A DNA stretch of 64,000 bases from positions 1,376,001-1,440,000 of the forward strand of contig CBDDDZ010000005.1 of the NCBI GenBank assembly GCA_965226795.1. The letters are read 5' to 3'. Numbering within the stretch: the stretch's first letter is position 1; the number at the start of each line of letters is the position of its first letter. Made by a program: the position numbers and the translations under genes. The notes beneath the pieces are model-generated. The model did not search any database. It saw only the letters and a list, made by a program, of their open reading frames with translations, and was not told where the DNA came from. Shown here piece after piece: positions 1 through 40,550 of this stretch. This DNA is from Candidatus Latescibacterota bacterium (GTDB lineage: Bacteria; Latescibacterota; UBA2968; GCA-2709665).

Positions 1-7
1 GAAGCAT

Positions 8-421
8 ATGTTTACGCCTTCGGTTACCCTGCAGTACCCGGAAGAGCGCTGGCAGATGCCGGAGCGGTCGCGCAACCAGTTGTTCAACGATATCGACGAC
101 TGTATAGGTTGCGATCAGTGTGCGCGCGCCTGTCCTGTGGATTGCATTTATATCGAATGCGAAAAGGCCGGTCCCGACGAGGATTTGGGTCTGACGTCCA
201 AGGGAACAAAGAAGCGGCTGAAGGTTCTGCGTTTTGACATCGACATGGGGCTTTGCTGTTATTGTGGTCTTTGTACGTATCCCTGCCCTACCGAATGTCT
301 TGTCATGACGCCCAATTATGAATCGTCGGTTTACGATCGGACGGATCTGATTTACCGCTACGCCCGTCCCTGGGACTACGTACAAAAGCCCACTGACGCC
401 GAGTCGGCGGAGCGTCACTAG
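8..421 (+). CDS. nuoI: NADH-quinone oxidoreductase subunit I (probably 5'-truncated by the window edge)
   Basis: Two 4Fe-4S motifs (CIGCDQCARACP, CCYCGLCTYPCP) and a VTLQYPEE motif. The frame is open back to the window start. Confidence 0.93.
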   Translation: MFTPSVTLQYPEERWQMPERSRNQLFNDIDDCIGCDQCARACPVDCIYIECEKAGPDEDLGLTSKGTKKRLKVLRFDIDMGLCCYCGLCTYPCPTECLVMTPNYESSVYDRTDLIYRYARPWDYVQKPTDAESAERH

Positions 422-26355: not shown

Positions 26356-27072
26356 ATGTGTTATTTAAAGGCGTGGTGGGATAGCCCGCTACGTCAGAGG
26401 CGTGTTGCGGTGATAGCTGAAATGTCAAGCGTGCTCGACGGAACGTTCGGCGGCGCAGCCCGGGACCGCAAACGTGTCCGGCCGGATGGTCTCGATGCGC
26501 TGATGCGGACCATCCTGTCACAGAATACGAATGACGAAAACAGAGACAGGGCTTATGACAGGATGCGCGCCCGATTTCCCGATTGGAGCGACGTGATTGC
26601 CGCAGACGCGGAGCACCTGAAGGAAGCTATCCGCGTGGCAGGGTTGGCGAATACGAAAGCCCCGAATATGCAGGCGTTCTTGCGTTGGTTGAAGCGCGAG
26701 CGGGGTAACTTGAACCTGGATTTCCTGCGGGATCTATCGAATCAGGCCGCGGTGGCCCTGTTGACCGAGCATCGAGGAATCGGGGTCAAAACGGCTTATA
26801 TCCTGCTGGCCTTTGCTTTTGATCGCGATCTGTGCGCAGTGGATACGCATGTGTATCGCATCCTGCGTCGGGTGGGCATTGTTTCAGAGCGATGCAGCCG
26901 AGAGAAAGCACACCTGGAACTCGCGCCTCTGATTCCAGGGGGCCAGGCCAGGGCCTTTCATATGAACTCGGTTGATTTTGGCAAGACCGTGTGCACGGCC
27001 AGGAATCCGTCCTGCGGCGTCTGTCCGATTTCCCATCTGTGCAGATACTATCACGAAACACAAGGCGGGTGA
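26356..27072 (+). CDS. Endonuclease III-like HhH-GPD DNA glycosylase (start uncertain)
   Basis: TILSQNT, GIGVKTA, VDTHVYR and the Fe-S motif CTARNPSCGVCPISHLC. Confidence 0.9.
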   Translation: MCYLKAWWDSPLRQRRVAVIAEMSSVLDGTFGGAARDRKRVRPDGLDALMRTILSQNTNDENRDRAYDRMRARFPDWSDVIAADAEHLKEAIRVAGLANTKAPNMQAFLRWLKRERGNLNLDFLRDLSNQAAVALLTEHRGIGVKTAYILLAFAFDRDLCAVDTHVYRILRRVGIVSERCSREKAHLELAPLIPGGQARAFHMNSVDFGKTVCTARNPSCGVCPISHLCRYYHETQGG

Positions 27073-27143
27073 GTTTGTATGGGAACCGGCCCGGATATTG
27101 TGGCCGGCATCCGGCTTCTCTGGTAGGGGCCGGCAGGTTCGTG

Positions 27144-28220
27144 TCAGTCGATTCTGATTCGCTGAAGATCGTACGAATTGACATTGTAGGGTTCGAAGGT
27201 ATCCTCGTCGCCGGGCGTATACACGGCAACATAAAGGTATTGATTGTTGTTGTCTATTGTGATGCCACGTTCCTTAAGGTTTCCGGCCGCAAGGAAATAG
27301 TTCTTCTCCAGCTTGGTTTGAGTATCGAATTCAACGATGAAAACACCCGCTTCATCAGCGTCTGTAGGCGCAACGAACAAACGACGCCCGTCCTGGCTCA
27401 GCGCAAGCCCCAGAGCAGGAGACTTGATTTCATATTTCCCCGTAAGCGTCAGATTGTCGGCACTGAATGCCCAGAGATCCTTTACGTGGCCACGGTCCTC
27501 AGGATCCGCCAGACCCAGGTAGAGGTGGTTGTTGAGAGGGCCCATTACAAAATCGTTGATCCTGGCTGAGAAACTGAAACGGGTCGAAGTGGTCTCTGTC
27601 GTTGGGAATTGACCTGAGGCGTCGTATTTCAGGATGTTGTTCCTGGCGGCAACAAAAAGCTTACGCTCGCCGTGATTCATCAGAAGTGCGCCGGATCGCA
27701 CGTTACCGCTGGTTTCGAGGTTGTCCACAATCGATACGGCAATCAGAAGCGGTTCGTCCAGCGAGGATACATAGACAATTGAGTCGGTTCCGCAGGCGAT
27801 GTGGGATATGTCATTCAGTGAGAAAGGAACCGTTTTCACAATGGCGAACGTGCTCAGATCGATTATTCTCAGGTTCGATTCGCCGTTCAATCCCACCACC
27901 AGGTGGCGTTGGTCCGGTGTGATGTCAAGGTCGATGGGGTGGGAACCCACATGGAGATTCCCTTCGACGACCATCTGCTTGCCAAGGTGGATGCGGAGAA
28001 TCCTGTTGTTCCCGTAGTCGGCCAGATAGAGAAATGGCTGGTGCGGATCCATTACCATATCCGAGATATTTACGCCGAGTTTCAGGATTTCGAAATCTTC
28101 GAATTCGTAGAAATGTTCCGGCTCTTCGTCGTCCAGATAAAGCGAGCAGCCCGACACACAAAGGAACATGCACAGTACAAGAAAAATGAACCGGCCGTGT
28201 GTTTTTCCGGTATGGCGCAT
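27144..28220 (-). CDS. YncE/YVTN-like beta-propeller lipoprotein
   Basis: Lipobox-like VSGC; repeated blades such as LYLADYGNNRI, VGSHPIDLDITPDQRHLVV and LALSQDGRRLFVA. Confidence 0.75.
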   Translation of the reverse strand: MRHTGKTHGRFIFLVLCMFLCVSGCSLYLDDEEPEHFYEFEDFEILKLGVNISDMVMDPHQPFLYLADYGNNRILRIHLGKQMVVEGNLHVGSHPIDLDITPDQRHLVVGLNGESNLRIIDLSTFAIVKTVPFSLNDISHIACGTDSIVYVSSLDEPLLIAVSIVDNLETSGNVRSGALLMNHGERKLFVAARNNILKYDASGQFPTTETTSTRFSFSARINDFVMGPLNNHLYLGLADPEDRGHVKDLWAFSADNLTLTGKYEIKSPALGLALSQDGRRLFVAPTDADEAGVFIVEFDTQTKLEKNYFLAAGNLKERGITIDNNNQYLYVAVYTPGDEDTFEPYNVNSYDLQRIRID

Positions 28221-28230
28221 GCCGGATCGC

Positions 28231-29202
28231 CTAAAGCGAGAAGACGTATGATGTGCTCAGCTCAATCAGATAGTCCGATGTCAGCTGGCTCTCGTTCACG
28301 TTTTGAATTACGACAATAGGCACACGGAATTCAACGCTGAGATTGTCCAGGATATTGACCCCCAATTCAGGTGAAAGATACAACCACTTCCCTCCCCGTT
28401 CTCTTGTAATCTGACCGAACTGGTAACGGTCCCGTGACGTAATCAGGTTTTTCAGACTCAGCCCGCCATAGAACGAGCCTTCCCCGGTGTACGCTACGGA
28501 GAGTGTGGTGTGCAGTTCGTTTCCGTATTTGTAGCCGTAAATGTTCTGTCTCGTGGTGATGCGGGTGAAGACACCGGCAGAGACGGTAAGGCTTTCAATA
28601 CGATGGAACATACCGATCGCGAAAATCGGGTCCACGCTTCCCGACCCGATCTGCAGATTGTCAGAGAAACGCTCGCCGTATTGATCTCTGGCATTTACGG
28701 ATCCGTTTGCCAGCTTCAATCCGATGCCGAGATTAAGACCGGAAAAGCCCGCTGCGAGCGGTACCGCGTAATTCAACATAGCCACTATATCGCCCAGTCC
28801 CGAGGCATGCCGAACATACTTTCCACCCTCATACTGGTTGTCGTTCTGTCCGCGCAACAGTACCTTTTCGTTGGCTACGGAACGGAAGGGCAGGGCGAGC
28901 GTCAGGCCGAAGCGTTCGGTAATGTCGTGCGAGGCAAATACGGTGGTCGTGGCATTATCCGTCCGTTCGCGATTGACGTTGGGTATGGCGCGGGAACCGT
29001 AGTGGGGGTCAGACAGGAATTCGTAGTCGTAGTGTACGCTGAGCGTCAGTTGATCCTTAACGGCCAGACTATTCTTCATCAGGCTCCCGCCCGGGAGTAC
29101 GGGGCGCCGTCAGCTGACGCCGCCTTGAGCATGGGCGGCGGGGGCCGTGACTATCTGCACTATAAGGAACAGGAAGAGACACCGGGCTGAGAACGGTCGC
29201 AT
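28231..29202 (-). CDS. Putative selenoprotein outer-membrane beta-barrel transporter (MetA-pathway/transporter-like), Sec at codon 31
   Basis: GAGGT RBS and ATG at 29202 give a signal peptide (MRPFSARCLFLFLIVQIVTAPAAHA|QGGVS). An in-frame TGA at 29112-29110 is followed by RRPVLPGGSL, running in frame into the ORF-track protein 28231..29079 (GLGD, LQIGSGSVD, terminal YVFSL). Hairpin CTCCC-GGGC-GGGAG starts 12 nt after the TGA. Confidence 0.75.
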
Positions 29203-29371
29203 GCGGGGTTACCTCAATCCGTAGGATATGGTCGTGAGGCGAGAGTCCGGATTTCTAGCGTTGAAATATACCTCACATGCGTCTGGATAGCAAGACGGAT
29301 TTTGTTTCGTGAGACTACATAGAGCCCAAATTTACAGATCTTTACATAACCCGCCGCCAAGCCGTTTTTTC

Positions 29372-31188: not shown

Positions 31189-31788
31189 TTGACAGAAATA
31201 TTCCTGATTGTGGTTGGAATGGGTGTCTCGGCTGCTGTCGCCCAAGCCGATCGGGGCCATGTGCTGGACACGAGTGAAGAGAACATGAAACAAATTGCCA
31301 GCTCTCTCGGGGTACGGTGTACTCATTGCCACACTACGCGGATACCAGATGGAAAACCCGATTTCGAGGCGCCTTCTTTGTTCAAGCAGACAGCCGTCCA
31401 TATGAAGGTTCACTTTGTGGACGGGCTGAAGACAGCGGACGGAAAGACGCTGGACTGCATGTTCTGTCACCAGGGCAAAGCCCGTTTTCTTCCGCGGGAC
31501 CTTAAAGACGCCAAACCGTCCAATTTATCTGAGCGGCTGCCCCGGCGGGAGATTTTCCGGAAAATGAAAGCCATTGAGAAGGCGCTGGGGGTAAACTGTG
31601 AATTCTGCCACGTCAGGCGTGAAGACGGACGCCTTGTGCCAGAGCAGCCGACCAAACATAAGCTGATGGCGAAATTTATGATGGACCACTACGATGGATC
31701 ATTGATCACGTCAGACGGGACGACGGCCTCCTGCGTAACCTGCCACCTGGGTGGGGCGGAGTTTTTGCCCCGTTCAACCGGTGAATGA
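31189..31788 (+). CDS. Secreted tetraheme c-type cytochrome (PufC-like, duplicated diheme module)
   Basis: Four CxxCH motifs (CTHCH, CMFCH, CEFCH, CVTCH), a signal peptide and a TTG start after GGAGGAG. Confidence 0.85.
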   Translation: MTEIFLIVVGMGVSAAVAQADRGHVLDTSEENMKQIASSLGVRCTHCHTTRIPDGKPDFEAPSLFKQTAVHMKVHFVDGLKTADGKTLDCMFCHQGKARFLPRDLKDAKPSNLSERLPRREIFRKMKAIEKALGVNCEFCHVRREDGRLVPEQPTKHKLMAKFMMDHYDGSLITSDGTTASCVTCHLGGAEFLPRSTGE

Positions 31789-31807: not shown

Positions 31808-33686
31808 ATCGGGATAGGGGGGAGTCTTGCGACTCCGCCCCTCCCACACCACCGTGCGTACGGGTCCGTACACGGCGGTTCGACGGATTTAAGCGGTCAA
31901 GCCGGGCAGCAATGAAGGGAGCCCGAGCTTGTTGAAGAAGGCGTTGGTCAGGGCGATGGACAGCGCGGGGCTGTTGCTGAGCCGCCAGGGTCCGTGGGGG
32001 CTGCCGGCGGTCTGCGCCGCCAGGTCCTTACCGACGCCGTGGCGGCGCAACGCTGGAAAGCGAGTGCGCCCGCGTTTCCACTGCCGCCAGACGAAGGCGC
32101 GAAGCCGACGTCTGATCCATTGATCGAGGCGGCGCAAGACCGAAGGGGTCTCGCAGAAGCCGAAGTAGCCCCGCCACCCAACAAGGTAGCGGGACAACGC
32201 CGTGGTCAGGCGGGAAAGACCGACGCTGTTCGTGCCCCGCGTCAGCTCCCGGACCCGAGCCTTGAACCGGGCCACCGCCTGTCCAGCGATGCGCCGCCGG
32301 GGTGTCCGTCTCCCGGTAAAGCTGAAGCCCAGAAAGGATCGCGCCACCGGGCGGTCGACCGCGCTTTTGGCCACGTTGACCGTCAGCTTCAGGCGCCGGG
32401 CCAGGAAGTGGGTCACACTGGCCATCACCCGCACGCCCGCACGCCGGGACCGCACATAGATGTTACAGTCGTCGGCATAGCGGACGAAGCGGTGGCCACG
32501 CGTCTCCAGTTCCTTGTCCCAGACGTCCAGCATCAGGTTCGACAGCAGTGGCGACAGCGGGCCGCCCTGCGGCGTCCCCTTTGTCGTCGGGCTCACCAAG
32601 CCGCCGTCCAGCACGCCCGCGGTTATAGAAAACCACGGACCAGCTTGAGCAGACGCTTGTCGGCCACGCGCTTGGCCACCAGACCCATCAGGATGTCGTG
32701 GTTGACCCGGTCAAAGAATTTTTCCAGGTCAAGATCGACCACGATGGCGAACCCCGCGCCGATGTGCTCCTGCGCGCGCTGCACCGCCTGATGCGCCGAA
32801 CGGCCAGGCCTGAACCCGTAGCTCGCCTCCGAGAAACTCTCGTCCCACGCCTCCTGTAACACCTGCATCGCCGCCTGCTGGATGGAAGCGGTCCAACACC
32901 GTCGGCACGCCCAGCAGACGTGTGCCGCCAGACGCCTTCGGTATCTCCACGCGCCGCACCGGCTGCGGGATGTAGCTGCCGTCAAGGAGGCGTGACCTGA
33001 TCTCTTTCCAGTGGTCCTTCAGGTGGCCCACCAGCGCCTCGACACGCATCCCGTCCACGCCGGGCGCTCCCTTGTTGCGACGGACACGCTTCAGCGCCTT
33101 CCGCAAATTTCCGGGCTCGACCACCGCCTCCATCGACACGGCCAGCCCGGCCGCAGGGCGTTCGGGGGCGGCACGCGCCACACGCACTTCGGTCCCTTCA
33201 GCAACGGCGGCCCGGGCTTCACCCTTCGCCACCGGCGCCAAGGCCAGTTCCAACTGGGTTTTCTGCCGCCTGGTGCGCATAAGCGTGCCGTCCTACTTGT
33301 CCTGTCCATCGTTCGGGCCTTCGCCGGTCGCCCGGCTACTATGCCCTCTGCTGACCTCTGCGCCGCGGTCACGGCCTTTTCGAACCGCTCAGTCCGGGTT
33401 TTCCGGACACGACGCAGACCTCCCGAGGTAAGACCGATCGCCTTCAGCGCACACCCGCCGGATTTACCACCCCGGCCCTTGATGGCTTTGGACTTCGCGA
33501 TCATATGCTCGCTCGTCCCGCCGGGTAGGCCTCTTATCCGGTTCTTGTCCATCGGGTCGCGCCTTTGCTACGCGCTTCCTTCAGACATCCCCTCGCGACG
33601 ATGCCCTTGCGCTTCGCTAACCCTTCGCCGCCATCAGGCTGGGTAGAGGACTTCCACCTCCAAGCTGTCGATCATGCTCGGCACAC
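31808..33686 (-). mobile_element. Group II intron, bacterial class C (IIC), 1879 nt
   Basis: 5' end GTGTGCC at 33686. Short domain V GAACCGCCGTGTACGGACCCGTACGCACGGTGGTGT (31881-31846), domain VI and 3' end CCTATCCCGAT at 31808. Inserted 4 nt after a terminator stem. Confidence 0.93.
31889..33280 (-). pseudogene. ltrA: Group II intron reverse transcriptase/maturase, broken by two frameshifts
   Basis: Three consecutive frames: NKGAPGVDG...PTVLDRF / IQQA...SYGFRPGRS...DLEKFFD / GTPQGGPLSPLL...YADD. Extra C near 32884 and extra TA near 32624. Confidence 0.92.
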
Positions 33687-37794: not shown

Positions 37795-38153
37795 GTGAAA
37801 ATATGCAGTTCGCGGCTAATAGTACACCTGGTTCCCACGGCACTACTTCCAAACTCAAATGATCGACCGTCTACGGGACACATCGCCGACTGAACAAAAG
37901 GCAATGTCGACTGTGGCCAAAGACACAGATTCTGCCCTTTGGGCGATTTCCATTCGGGTCCTGTTCCGCGATGATTCGAAACACATCGAGTACGATACGC
38001 AGCTGGCCGCAACGCAGAAGATTTCTCGGCATTCGGTCCCGAATCTGAAAACTCTGTGCGGAAGTTATCGGCTTGTGCGGTGGTCAGCGCACTTATTGAC
38101 GACTATCCTTACTCGCTCTTCGACCGCCCGCCGCCTTGCGGCGGACTCCCGCC

Positions 38154-40550
38154 TCAAGGCGAAGACACGTCGAGATTACGATCCTTGAAGATCAGCCTCG
38201 TGCCTGATACGGCCGAGTGCGATAGATAGACGCCGTCGGAACCCGTTCTAACGACAGCGCAAATCGCATCCGTGCCGAGATCGTCTGCGCCGTACGTCCG
38301 GTAGGATCCGTCGGAGATAACGATGTGGTCCGTGATGCCGCCATGCTCCACGACCAGGTAGGCCGTGCCTCCCGGTCCCTCGTTGGCTCCACGGCGAATC
38401 GTCACCCTGGGAGGGCGCGTACTTTGAAAGGGATAGAGCACCACCGGCAGGTCATCCACCCGACCGTCGTCGGAAGTCATCAGGTCCAGGGAAGCCCACC
38501 TGATGGGCTGTCGGCCGGGAGACGCGATACCGCCAAGATGCGCCATACCCGTTCCTTGCCGGATGCCCACTTTGCTCGAGGTCGCCACGACAAGACCGGG
38601 CGCTTTGGTAGATAACACGGCCGAACCGCCCCGCTGCAGCGGCGTGGGGGAATGCAGCATAAACGAAGCTTTTCTGCCGCCCGTGGTGGAGGAGAAGGCA
38701 TCGAATACAACGAAATAGGGATTGGTTTCGGGCGCAGGCTCCACGGGCTTCAGGAAAAGAAAATGCCGGCGATGAAAAACGCCCAATGAACGATAACCGT
38801 CATGCTCCGCGGAAAAGTAGTCCATGCCGGCCTGGTTGCTCCATAAGGGTTTCTCGCCTACCGCAATCTTGCGGTCCAGGTTCCTGTCGTCTATCACGAG
38901 CATATTGTGGGCTTTGGAAGTCTTGTACCACGGGCCGTGGAGCGGGTCGTCGTAGCTGACGCCGATGCCGGCGTCGACAGCCAGCGCCTTCCCATAGGCG
39001 AAAAGTTCAAAGCTGAGGATATCGGGATGTGAATGCCCGCCGCCATACTCACCGTAGTTGATGACCAGGTAAGGACTGTTTCGGGTCCAATCCATGCGCA
39101 TCACGGCGAAACCCGACGGTCTGAAATCGATTGACGTTCCGGACGGCGGCTCGACGACGTCGTCGATGCTGGCGCCGAGCAGGTTTTTGGCCACCCAGAG
39201 CATGTCCGGCCGTTTGAAGGCGCGGCCGCCATCGATAAAGACGTTGCGGTCGAACCGTCCCCGGCCGCCATCGTTTACAGCAGGCGGGGTGCCCAGGGGA
39301 CTGATCAGATACATCCAGTGGTTCAGGGTGCGTTCGAGTGTCGGGCGAAGAGCAGCCGCCCGGTCATCGTTGCCGCCGAAACGCTTAAGAAGGTAGGCCA
39401 GATTCCGTGGGTCGCGATAAACGATATTGGAATAGCTGGAAGGGCAACGCTCCGAATGGCATCCGTCTTCGTAAAAGTCCTTTGATAGGTGCTCTTCTAT
39501 TCGATAAACACCCTGGGAGACCCACTGATCGGCCTCCTTGAATTCGGGGAGGTTGAGGCCCAACTCGGCCAGAGCGTAGGAACCCATCACCTGCCAGTTG
39601 CCCGGCCGGTACCCCTGCTTTTCCAGTTCGTACAGCCAGCGCGCTGATCCCAGGAAGTTCTTCAGGATTCTCTCGTGGGTCCGCAACGAAAGCCGGCTGC
39701 GGTTGAGACGGTAGAATTCCAGAAATACGCGATTCCGGCGCGATCCGAGTCCGAGTTCGTACCAGACCGGGTCCAGGTTCGCGTGGCCACCCACGACGTC
39801 GTCCCGTTGCTCGTACCACTGATTGAAGAGTTCGTCGAAGGCATCCAGGTACTTCGTGTCTCGCGTGCCCAGGTACGCCCACAGAAGGGGCCCCGACCAA
39901 CCCCAGTAGTGAAACCCGTATTTACCGCTTCTGCCGTAATCCGCGTTGAAATCCACGACCGGACCGTGCTGGATAGTTACCCCGCCCCATCCTGTGATGT
40001 TGTGGGCGACCACGCGGTCTGCGGCCGCCGTATAGTTTCTCGTGCTGAAGTACCTGTACGCCTCTTCGATTGTGTAGTAGGGGATGCCGGTATTGATATA
40101 GGGGAATCCGGGATGGGCGTCCCAGTACGCCCCCCACGCTTCGTAGGCTGCGGCGTAATCGCCCTGGTCAACGGCGCGTCTGACGTCCTCGAGCCCGGCA
40201 CGGTCCACGTCCATCGCGGCAAAGAAGTCCGGATCGCTGATGTGCTTGATCTGTTGATCCAGGTAGACGGGATCTTCGCGGAGGTCGGTATTCGCCTCAC
40301 TGAACGCATTTGAAAATAGAATGAAGTCACTGAAACCGACCCTTCCGTCGAGGTCCATATCGAAACGGGCGTCGAACGTGCTGTCGGTCCGGGAGGTTCC
40401 GAAGTTCCGGGCAAAGGCGACGAAATCTTCGAAGCCCACGTGGCCGTCTTCGGTGAAGTCCCCGGGCACACCCGAATAGGCAACGGAGGACGCCAGGATG
40501 ACGACCAGTAACGGTCCAAGACGCTTCCATGGCAGGACTCGAGGTGTCAT
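38154..40550 (-). CDS. Secreted heparinase II/III-like polysaccharide lyase with N-terminal dockerin/EF-hand-like module
   Basis: Signal peptide; duplicated GDFTEDGHVGFEDF / FDMDLDGRVGFSDF; NWQ, DGCHSE, GHSHPDILSF and AHNML motifs. Confidence 0.85.
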   Translation of the reverse strand: MTPRVLPWKRLGPLLVVILASSVAYSGVPGDFTEDGHVGFEDFVAFARNFGTSRTDSTFDARFDMDLDGRVGFSDFILFSNAFSEANTDLREDPVYLDQQIKHISDPDFFAAMDVDRAGLEDVRRAVDQGDYAAAYEAWGAYWDAHPGFPYINTGIPYYTIEEAYRYFSTRNYTAAADRVVAHNITGWGGVTIQHGPVVDFNADYGRSGKYGFHYWGWSGPLLWAYLGTRDTKYLDAFDELFNQWYEQRDDVVGGHANLDPVWYELGLGSRRNRVFLEFYRLNRSRLSLRTHERILKNFLGSARWLYELEKQGYRPGNWQVMGSYALAELGLNLPEFKEADQWVSQGVYRIEEHLSKDFYEDGCHSERCPSSYSNIVYRDPRNLAYLLKRFGGNDDRAAALRPTLERTLNHWMYLISPLGTPPAVNDGGRGRFDRNVFIDGGRAFKRPDMLWVAKNLLGASIDDVVEPPSGTSIDFRPSGFAVMRMDWTRNSPYLVINYGEYGGGHSHPDILSFELFAYGKALAVDAGIGVSYDDPLHGPWYKTSKAHNMLVIDDRNLDRKIAVGEKPLWSNQAGMDYFSAEHDGYRSLGVFHRRHFLFLKPVEPAPETNPYFVVFDAFSSTTGGRKASFMLHSPTPLQRGGSAVLSTKAPGLVVATSSKVGIRQGTGMAHLGGIASPGRQPIRWASLDLMTSDDGRVDDLPVVLYPFQSTRPPRVTIRRGANEGPGGTAYLVVEHGGITDHIVISDGSYRTYGADDLGTDAICAVVRTGSDGVYLSHSAVSGTRLIFKDRNLDVSSP

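Follow-up and report, generated by a model that had tools for sequence, protein, structure and literature searches.

The window, that is, the whole 64,000-nucleotide stretch of Candidatus Latescibacterota DNA that was analysed, carries on its minus strand a reading frame that runs from an ATG at 29202 to a TAG ending at 28231 and comprises 323 residues with a single internal TGA. The read-through product begins MRPFS...AHA-QGGVS-[TGA]-RRPVLPGGSLM, and for this frame the list of open reading frames gives only the 282-aa piece from an ATG at 29079. The ATG of a second gene, at 28220, lies 10 bp downstream and opens a β-propeller protein with a lipobox-like VSG-C25. The start codon, the GAGGT, the TGA, the hairpin, the internal ATG and the gap to the propeller gene, all placed by an earlier note on this DNA, were reproduced in the sequence. 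The features are as follows (Sec, selenocysteine).

28231..29202, minus strand: full gene of the predicted Sec-containing outer-membrane β-barrel, 323 aa with U31; model pLDDT 90.5, Z 25.9 to 4RL8
29128..29202, minus strand: predicted signal peptide, residues 1-25 (AHA before, Q after the cut), assigned by eye; homologous loci also have a hydrophobic leader before the site
29211..29215, minus strand: RBS-like GAGGT, 8 nt before ATG 29202
29265..29293, minus strand: sigma-70-like promoter match TTGCTA-17-TATATT, 9/12, a consensus match only
29110..29112, minus strand: in-frame TGA, putative Sec31 = mature residue 6; TGA in 101/101 loci; aligns with the first Cys of CC/CxC/CxxxxC homologs
29084..29097, minus strand: predicted SECIS hairpin CUCCC-GGGC-GGGAG, 5-bp stem, N-GG-N loop; covariation; -8.1 kcal/mol; spacing as in selD
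29077..29079, minus strand: internal ATG used by gene callers, truncated 282-aa product; the position is Leu in many homologs
28969..29001, minus strand: barrel loop L1, residues 68-78, predicted propeller contact (structure model and co-fold)
28819..28869, minus strand: barrel loop L2, residues 112-128 (LRGQ...YxGG), main predicted propeller contact (co-fold)
27144..28220, minus strand: β-propeller lipoprotein, predicted lid; 358 aa, lipobox Cys25 followed by an acidic patch

Contigs from RNA libraries span both genes (X7 26966-29248, X12 26705-29208), the region 37928-39900 being nearly uncovered, which is only a hint of transcription of both genes; the contig ends at 29248, 29226 and 29208, near the promoter match, are a weak hint as well.

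To follow the codon through relatives, 112 loci were examined, of which 110 had a match and 101 reached the codon. All 101 carry TGA at the site, at a GC content of 30-62%; a conserved TGA at residue 31 was one of the outcomes for which the earlier note had proposed a test. The loci are redundant, with 82 distinct DNAs among them, of which 45 remain at <90% and 17 at <70% protein identity. The TGA is retained down to ~30% protein identity. Among 401 Marinisomatota genomes, 26 close matches were found with one TGA inside each (26/26), and a motif search placed 25 of the 26 TGAs at the barrel codon. In the bacterium's own phylum (168 genomes) TGA copies occur in 18 genomes, with two copies in all 15 of the genus; the second copy of the present genome, a paralog, lies at C5:838429. 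The named relatives are Latescibacterota/Gemmatimonadota MAGs and one Marinimicrobia MAG, and some sequencing runs containing the stretch carry the label sponge metagenome. Where the contigs of four sequencing runs span the codon, they list no deviating letter, and they confirm the TGA.

The database proteins are mostly ~280 aa long, and among the full-length ones five read W and two Ser at the site. One W entry (P0028) shares its leader with a TGA locus (L067), therefore W at this position is probably a gene-caller reading. A Trp reading of the TGA was considered and rejected, since the W database entries match TGA loci and the neighbouring propeller gene ends on TGA. The two close full-length homologs with Ser, together with a few distant ones with E, A or P at the site, indicate that Sec is dispensable in some branches.

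The hairpin starts 12 nt after the UGA, its loop 17 nt after, and it overlies the codons L-P-G-G-S. Set against the bSECIS constraints in the accessible part of PMC13188914 (a 3-9 nt loop, a 4-16 bp stem, a G in the first two loop positions, 16-37 nt spacing, MFE <= -7.5 and an N1-G-G-N2 pairing pattern), it agrees in all four constraints compared (4-nt loop, 5 bp, G, 17 nt, -8.1 kcal/mol). Its stability gave no signal relative to shuffled sequences (z -0.5 and -0.95), and in a 43-nt context the minimum-energy fold is an alternative pairing. As the hairpin energy by itself is not unusual, it is covariation that supports the SECIS, and because the hairpin overlies conserved codons, covariation was tested at synonymous sites only (56 variable fourfold columns, 1540 pairs, 45 representatives). 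The two top-ranking pairs of the 1540 both belong to the hairpin, namely the Pro3-Gly3 pair closing the GG loop, complementary in 96% of the 45 representatives, and the Leu3-Gly3 stem pair, complementary in 91%; background complementarity has a mean of 29% (sd 9%) and the next best pair reaches 59%, relatedness inflating such counts for control pairs equally. In the 82 distinct sequences the stem pair occurs as C-G 44, U-A 26, U-G 7, A-U 3 and G-C 2 times, with no mismatch. The earlier note had pointed out that bacterial SECIS elements lie about this far from the UGA, and had proposed to test whether homologs keep the hairpin.

The genome, which is 95.9% complete, contains the whole set of selA, selB, selC and selD whose presence the earlier note had proposed to check: selA and selB adjoin the tRNA-Sec gene on contig C5, and selD, itself with a TGA, is on contig C4. 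A scan of 146,598 TGAs of the genome for a hairpin like this one left 155 candidates, 21 of them in plausible reading frames, and these candidates include the barrel gene, its paralog at C5:838429 and selD, the hairpin loop of which also lies 17 nt from the UGA. SelA was present in 24 of 26 Marinisomatota genomes with the TGA barrel, compared to 304 of 401 in the background, and in 17 of 18 such genomes of the own phylum, compared to 131 of 168, a weak test because the background is already 76-78%. Three TGA genomes lack selA; all of them have a TGA-containing selD and two have tRNA-Sec. In one 1.6-Mb assembly with the TGA barrel (G526) selA, selB and tRNA-Sec are absent and the TGA-containing selD is present.

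Judged from the conserved TGA, the covarying hairpin, the Sec machinery and the correspondence between Sec and Cys described below, the barrel TGA very likely encodes Sec, and the gene a selenoprotein, as the earlier note had suggested. It is very unlikely that translation really stops at the TGA, that the codon is read as Trp or that its letters are a sequencing error, with the barrel made from the internal ATG or the gene dead. Databases do hold the 282-aa form, some entries have W at the site and the hairpin alone is not unusually stable; against this, the TGA is kept over the wide range of identity given above, homologs often have Leu in place of the internal Met, a barrel without a leader would not be exportable, P0028 has the leader of L067, the TGA that ends the propeller gene makes TGA a normal stop here, and the contigs of the sequencing runs confirm the letters.

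The mature barrel was modelled as a protein of 298 aa with 12 strands at a pLDDT of 90.5, mature residues 1-10 having a pLDDT of 66. Its best fold match is the COG4313 channel Pput2725 (PDB 4RL8; Z 25.9, 2.4 A, 255 residues aligned, 11% identity), followed by FapF (PDB 5O65; Z 23.8) and subsequently by autotransporter barrels. In Pput2725 roughly 14 N-terminal residues enter at the periplasmic side and fill the lumen, according to the part of PMC4493636 that was available. Since the aligned range is 12..296 of the model and 1..268 of 4RL8, so that model residue 12 equals 4RL8 residue 1, model residues 12-25 correspond to this in-lumen N-terminus, and the Sec at mature residue 6 would, by this comparison, extend the N-terminal plug in or at the lumen. 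The Pfam PF13557 (Phenol_MetA_deg) score of the barrel is 19.8 with a cut-off of 22, therefore we call it COG4313-like and not a formal member; several relatives pass. For the characterised COG4313 channels the link is to hydrophobic solutes and not to metals, SphA being tied to sphingosine uptake (PMC4493636, available part).

A profile search with the barrel yielded 2025 representatives at E<=0.001, of which the best 150 were taken, 148 of them new. Among these 148 (of the best 150 of 2025) the N-terminal motifs were CC in 63, CxC in 12, CxxxxC in 9, CxxC in 4, CxxxC in 3 and a single Cys in 6, with none in 51, mostly truncated, sequences. With the site masked, a Cys was found within two residues of the Sec position in 95 of the 103 distant representatives that reach the site (again of the best 150 of 2025), the tolerance of two residues being used as the masked column itself aligned as an insert. 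This count is preferred to an earlier 40/44 for hand-picked rows, since it covers all 148 representatives, and it shows that Cys homologs, which the earlier note had suggested looking for, do exist among the distant relatives; among close (>30%) homologs no Cys was seen at the site. In a pairwise alignment with a CC-type relative, U31 meets the first Cys of the pair, gap-free and six residues before a shared Pro.

A second Cys after the Sec is absent in 42 of 45 Sec-type barrels, and thus one Sec stands for the Cys pair of the relatives. The earlier note had proposed, by inference, that the Sec acts as a metal/metalloid ligand or redox gate in uptake; the same absence weakens an intramolecular redox gate. 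Cys-pair motifs as such are typical of metal or redox sites. In a rough midpoint-rooted FastTree tree of 151 rows, from which representatives <250 aa were dropped and no direction of change was read, all 20 Sec rows, both Ser rows and the 9 thioredoxin fusions fall in one clade (0.947) without Cys-motif rows.

Of 101 loci, 80 have the propeller behind the barrel; 8 end too early, which leaves 80 of 93 informative ones, and the 13 informative loci without this propeller comprise 11 of the paralog branch together with L124 and L042. In Marinisomatota the propeller stands behind the barrel in 26/26 loci. It is a 7-bladed propeller of the lactonase/SGL type (Pfam and Atlas); the label YncE-like given in the earlier note holds at the level of the fold and not at that of the family model NF052280 (E 0.015, 14.1 bits with a cut-off of 400). 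The post-TGA part of the barrel, which leaves out the Sec and the five residues before it, was co-folded with the mature propeller alongside three controls. The score was 0.71, compared to 0.00 for the best control, with at least 81% of contacts agreeing between runs and a partner pLDDT of at least 86; among reference pairs, 116 of 157 solved and 2 of 215 mismatched ones attain the mark applied, figures that are only roughly valid with own alignments.

The predicted contacts join the long barrel loops L1 and L2 with the conserved propeller motifs TDADxxG, LAAGN and PGD, and conservation of the interface columns is above average in both proteins (barrel 0.78 vs 0.63, propeller 0.77 vs 0.58). 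By the usual barrel topology L1 and L2 are extracellular, and the propeller is predicted to cap the outer loops of the barrel as a lid. Synteny and co-folding uphold the two-gene module that the earlier note had put forward, and a physical complex of barrel and propeller is, on the models, probable. The pass in co-folding could still come from mere likeness to BtuG-type complexes; no BtuG chain was found among the 22 PDB matches of the propeller profile. The lipid Cys of the propeller is followed by an acidic patch (in 30 of 31 rows at least two of the ten residues after it are D/E), which resembles, without matching, the general Bacteroidetes lipoprotein export signal as described in the available part of PMC5080379.

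Thiol-oxidoreductase genes recur around the barrel. In 22 of 101 loci the gene directly upstream encodes a CxxC TlpA; these loci include the paralog of this genome and not the copy in the window, upstream of which there are tRNA genes; of the 35 representatives with enough upstream DNA only 10 have TlpA adjacent. L124 is a single ORF composed of a signal peptide, the TGA, the barrel and a C-terminal thioredoxin (CHTC), and 9 further representatives, N-terminally short, are barrel-thioredoxin fusions. As the C-terminus of the barrel lies periplasmic, the fused thioredoxin would sit beside the plug. In addition, the TGA barrel of locus L173 is followed by a lipoprotein gene and two TlpA genes, and on a Manganitrophus plasmid the gene of a CxxxxC-type barrel, a propeller lipoprotein gene and a TlpA gene are consecutive. 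Among 14 distant loci annotated with Pfam, DUF3179 adjoins 4 and TlpA 2. Mer/HMA genes are near 3 of these 14, two of the three barrels being without an N-terminal Cys motif, and one CC-type relative sits among merT, merB and a CopZ-type gene; beside the Sec-type copies, whose neighbourhoods were read by eye, no metal genes were seen. Fusion to thioredoxin and proximity to TlpA suggest that the Sec site would be reset by a redox reaction. This thioredoxin/TlpA link, the paralog and the Cys-pair homologs go beyond what the earlier note had seen.

We favour, with a probability of roughly 0.5, a lidded importer or scavenger that would capture a soft metal, a metalloid or a thiol-reactive solute on the plug Sec and subsequently import it. 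SelB would read the UGA as Sec, and cleavage of the signal peptide would leave the Sec as residue 6, in or at the lumen. The surface propeller lipoprotein would gather the solute, with which the plug selenolate would bind or react, a single selenolate taking over the job that a Cys pair may do in the Cys-type relatives. Finally, periplasmic TlpA or thioredoxin would reduce the Se-adduct, so that the cargo is released and the site reset. A more specific version, which we put forward only tentatively, is a TonB-independent lidded 12-stranded importer in which cargo is held covalently on the Sec and released by a thioredoxin-type reaction, so that reducing power would drive uptake; the cargo might then, just as tentatively, be Cu, Hg, As, Se itself or another soft metal or metalloid.

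The same fusions and TlpA adjacency would fit a redox conduit without transport, in which the plug Sec relays electrons from periplasmic TlpA or thioredoxin to peroxides, disulfides or polysulfides that reach the surface, and the propeller serves as a substrate-presenting cap. DUF3179, the neighbour of Cys-type relatives in 4 of the 14 distant loci, is itself a listed selenoprotein family (PMC13188914), and most selenoproteins are likely redox-active according to the accessible part of that paper. We nevertheless consider a conduit unlikely, since 42 of the 45 Sec-type barrels have no resolving Cys, TlpA is not adjacent in most representatives and the fold is that of solute and peptide channels.

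An export or anchoring pore dedicated to the partner lipoprotein, FapF- or Slam-like and with the plug Sec gating or assisting, is rather improbable. FapF is the second-best fold match, and the lipoprotein paired with the barrel differs between branches (this propeller, an NHL propeller or DUF3179). With the acidic patch, however, if it acts like the general export signal that it resembles, the propeller would need no pore of its own; moreover, co-folding predicts that a folded domain caps conserved loops of the barrel, and directly behind the thioredoxin-fused L124 there is no lipoprotein gene on the same strand.

Still less probable is a channel of the ordinary COG4313 type that takes up a hydrophobic or amphipathic organic compound and has the Sec as an oxidation-sensitive plug gate. 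It would agree with the best structural match and with TcpY, whose substrate is chlorophenol, and SphA, tied to sphingosine uptake in the sources as far as available. On the other hand, no catabolic genes are conserved nearby, the invariant columns of the barrel include many charged residues, and the Cys-pair motif of the relatives is of the metal or redox type.

The barrel very likely represents an unlisted selenoprotein family in a known fold, and two other outer-membrane barrel selenoproteins are already listed. No entry of COG4313/PF13557 type is present in the PMC13188914 table of 119 prokaryotic selenoprotein families (2026), which covers the Haft and Tolstoy 2025 families. No NCBIfam 20.0 model matches the barrel, nor any of 73 aligned members bar one weak unrelated match, a term search of the deep-Sep and BSepDB main texts gave no porin or barrel selenoprotein (BSepDB, in the part available, searches known families only), and literature searches found no description of the barrel family. 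The new family spans two phyla, the sponge-associated Latescibacterota and the marine Marinisomatota, and most of its database entries are cut at the TGA. Its Sec marks the functional residue of a large uncharacterised group of 'transporter' barrels tipped with CC, CxC or CxxxxC and suggests redox or soft-metal chemistry within a pore of the outer membrane, the Cys-type relatives offering a tractable way into barrel function.

Among known systems, a predicted Sec in an outer-membrane barrel is also listed for GSU2204 MtrB/PioB (NF041027) and the FCYXU TonB-dependent receptor (NF049945) (PMC13188914), families different from this barrel. The earlier note had cited Geobacter ExtI as a Sec-containing porin. 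This precedent does not stand: in the available part of PMC5877670 ExtI is an outer-membrane channel tied to selenium biology (selenite reduction) and classed with OprO/P porins, while the selenoprotein of the ext cluster is the cytochrome ExtKL/MccSep; ExtI is absent from the 119-family table of PMC13188914, and the barrel has no OprO/P-type Pfam or NCBIfam match and no neighbours of the ext-cytochrome type. FapF, a plugged polypeptide secretion channel in the available part of PMC5557850, shares the fold and a short helical plug (helix 13-18 in the barrel model), but the barrel has neither its periplasmic coiled coil nor an amyloid operon and carries a Sec in the plug region. Compared to Pput2725, SphA and TcpY, the barrel has an N-terminus 11 residues longer, which carries the Sec, a conserved lipoprotein partner and a link to thiol oxidoreductases.

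The copper importer OprC (CxxxM-HxM), which is TonB-dependent, has a thiol-based soft-metal site in an outer-membrane importer, as we propose here, but its site mixes Cys, Met and His, and neither Sec nor a lipoprotein lid is noted in the part of its description that was available. As for the lid, BtuG is likewise a β-propeller, and its barrel BtuB, like SusC, is TonB-dependent with 22 strands, whereas the present barrel has 12 strands in a 298-aa model and is without a plug domain of that kind. In the BtuB-BtuG and SusC-SusD systems of Bacteroides the surface lipoprotein caps the outer face of the barrel (10.1101/2022.11.17.516869, available part), the arrangement that co-folding predicts here. 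A lipoprotein lid on a small non-TonB barrel would, if true, extend the principle of the lidded transporter.

The genome containing the window carries a second copy of the Sec-type barrel gene, which shares 55% identity with the window barrel and has the same TGA and hairpin:
contig C5, 836382-839314 (locus L010, 4382-7314), barrel paralog and the genes preceding it.
Those upstream genes encode a propeller protein with NHL repeats and a TlpA of the CxxC type, and a second barrel copy was found in 15/15 genomes of the genus.

The TGA/hairpin scan of the same genome yielded further candidate selenoprotein genes:
C2:435839
C3:28214
C3:20738
C4:882826
C5:1052168
By eye, three of these were labelled as redoxin-like genes with RGTW-U-RRSRRQL, one as a thioredoxin-fold gene with GHN-U-PTC and one as a YIYP-U-PAD protein. 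As selA was found in 304 of the 401 Marinisomatota and 131 of the 168 Latescibacterota genomes searched, both phyla are broadly Sec-using.

In many Marinisomatota loci, the barrel operon is adjoined by a divergent gene:
L024 and L061-L121, on the upstream side of the barrel, divergently oriented FG-GAP/UnbV-ASPIC gene carrying a Por secretion tail.
This assignment comes from a domain scan of one member, and the neighbour cluster holding the gene (46 loci) also merges other tail-bearing proteins.

Two other features of the window were labelled by eye:
31189-31788, plus strand, multiheme cytochrome c: a small protein that looks exported and has four CxxCH motifs.
31889-33280, minus strand, fragmented group II intron reverse-transcriptase gene.
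The former is conserved among relatives within the genus. Within the latter, RNA-library contigs from three runs of a single study lack 1241 nt and run from 31907 straight on to 33149 through 24 letters of different sequence; they perhaps derive from an ORF-less intron copy elsewhere.

Among Cys-type relatives and their surroundings we noted:
L129:7119-8016, upstream of the Manganitrophus barrel, two small His/Cys-rich exported-looking proteins.
L167:4637-5548 (genome G297), CC-type barrel with an in-frame TAG in the first strand region.
The Manganitrophus barrel itself has a His-rich loop, and its two small neighbours had no match in the Pfam scan. For the TAG-broken barrel, a pseudogene or an error in the assembly is the probable explanation. 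At four loci (L162, L164, L166 and L169) the partner of the CC/CxC-type barrel is not a propeller but a DUF3179 gene, DUF3179 being a listed selenoprotein family.
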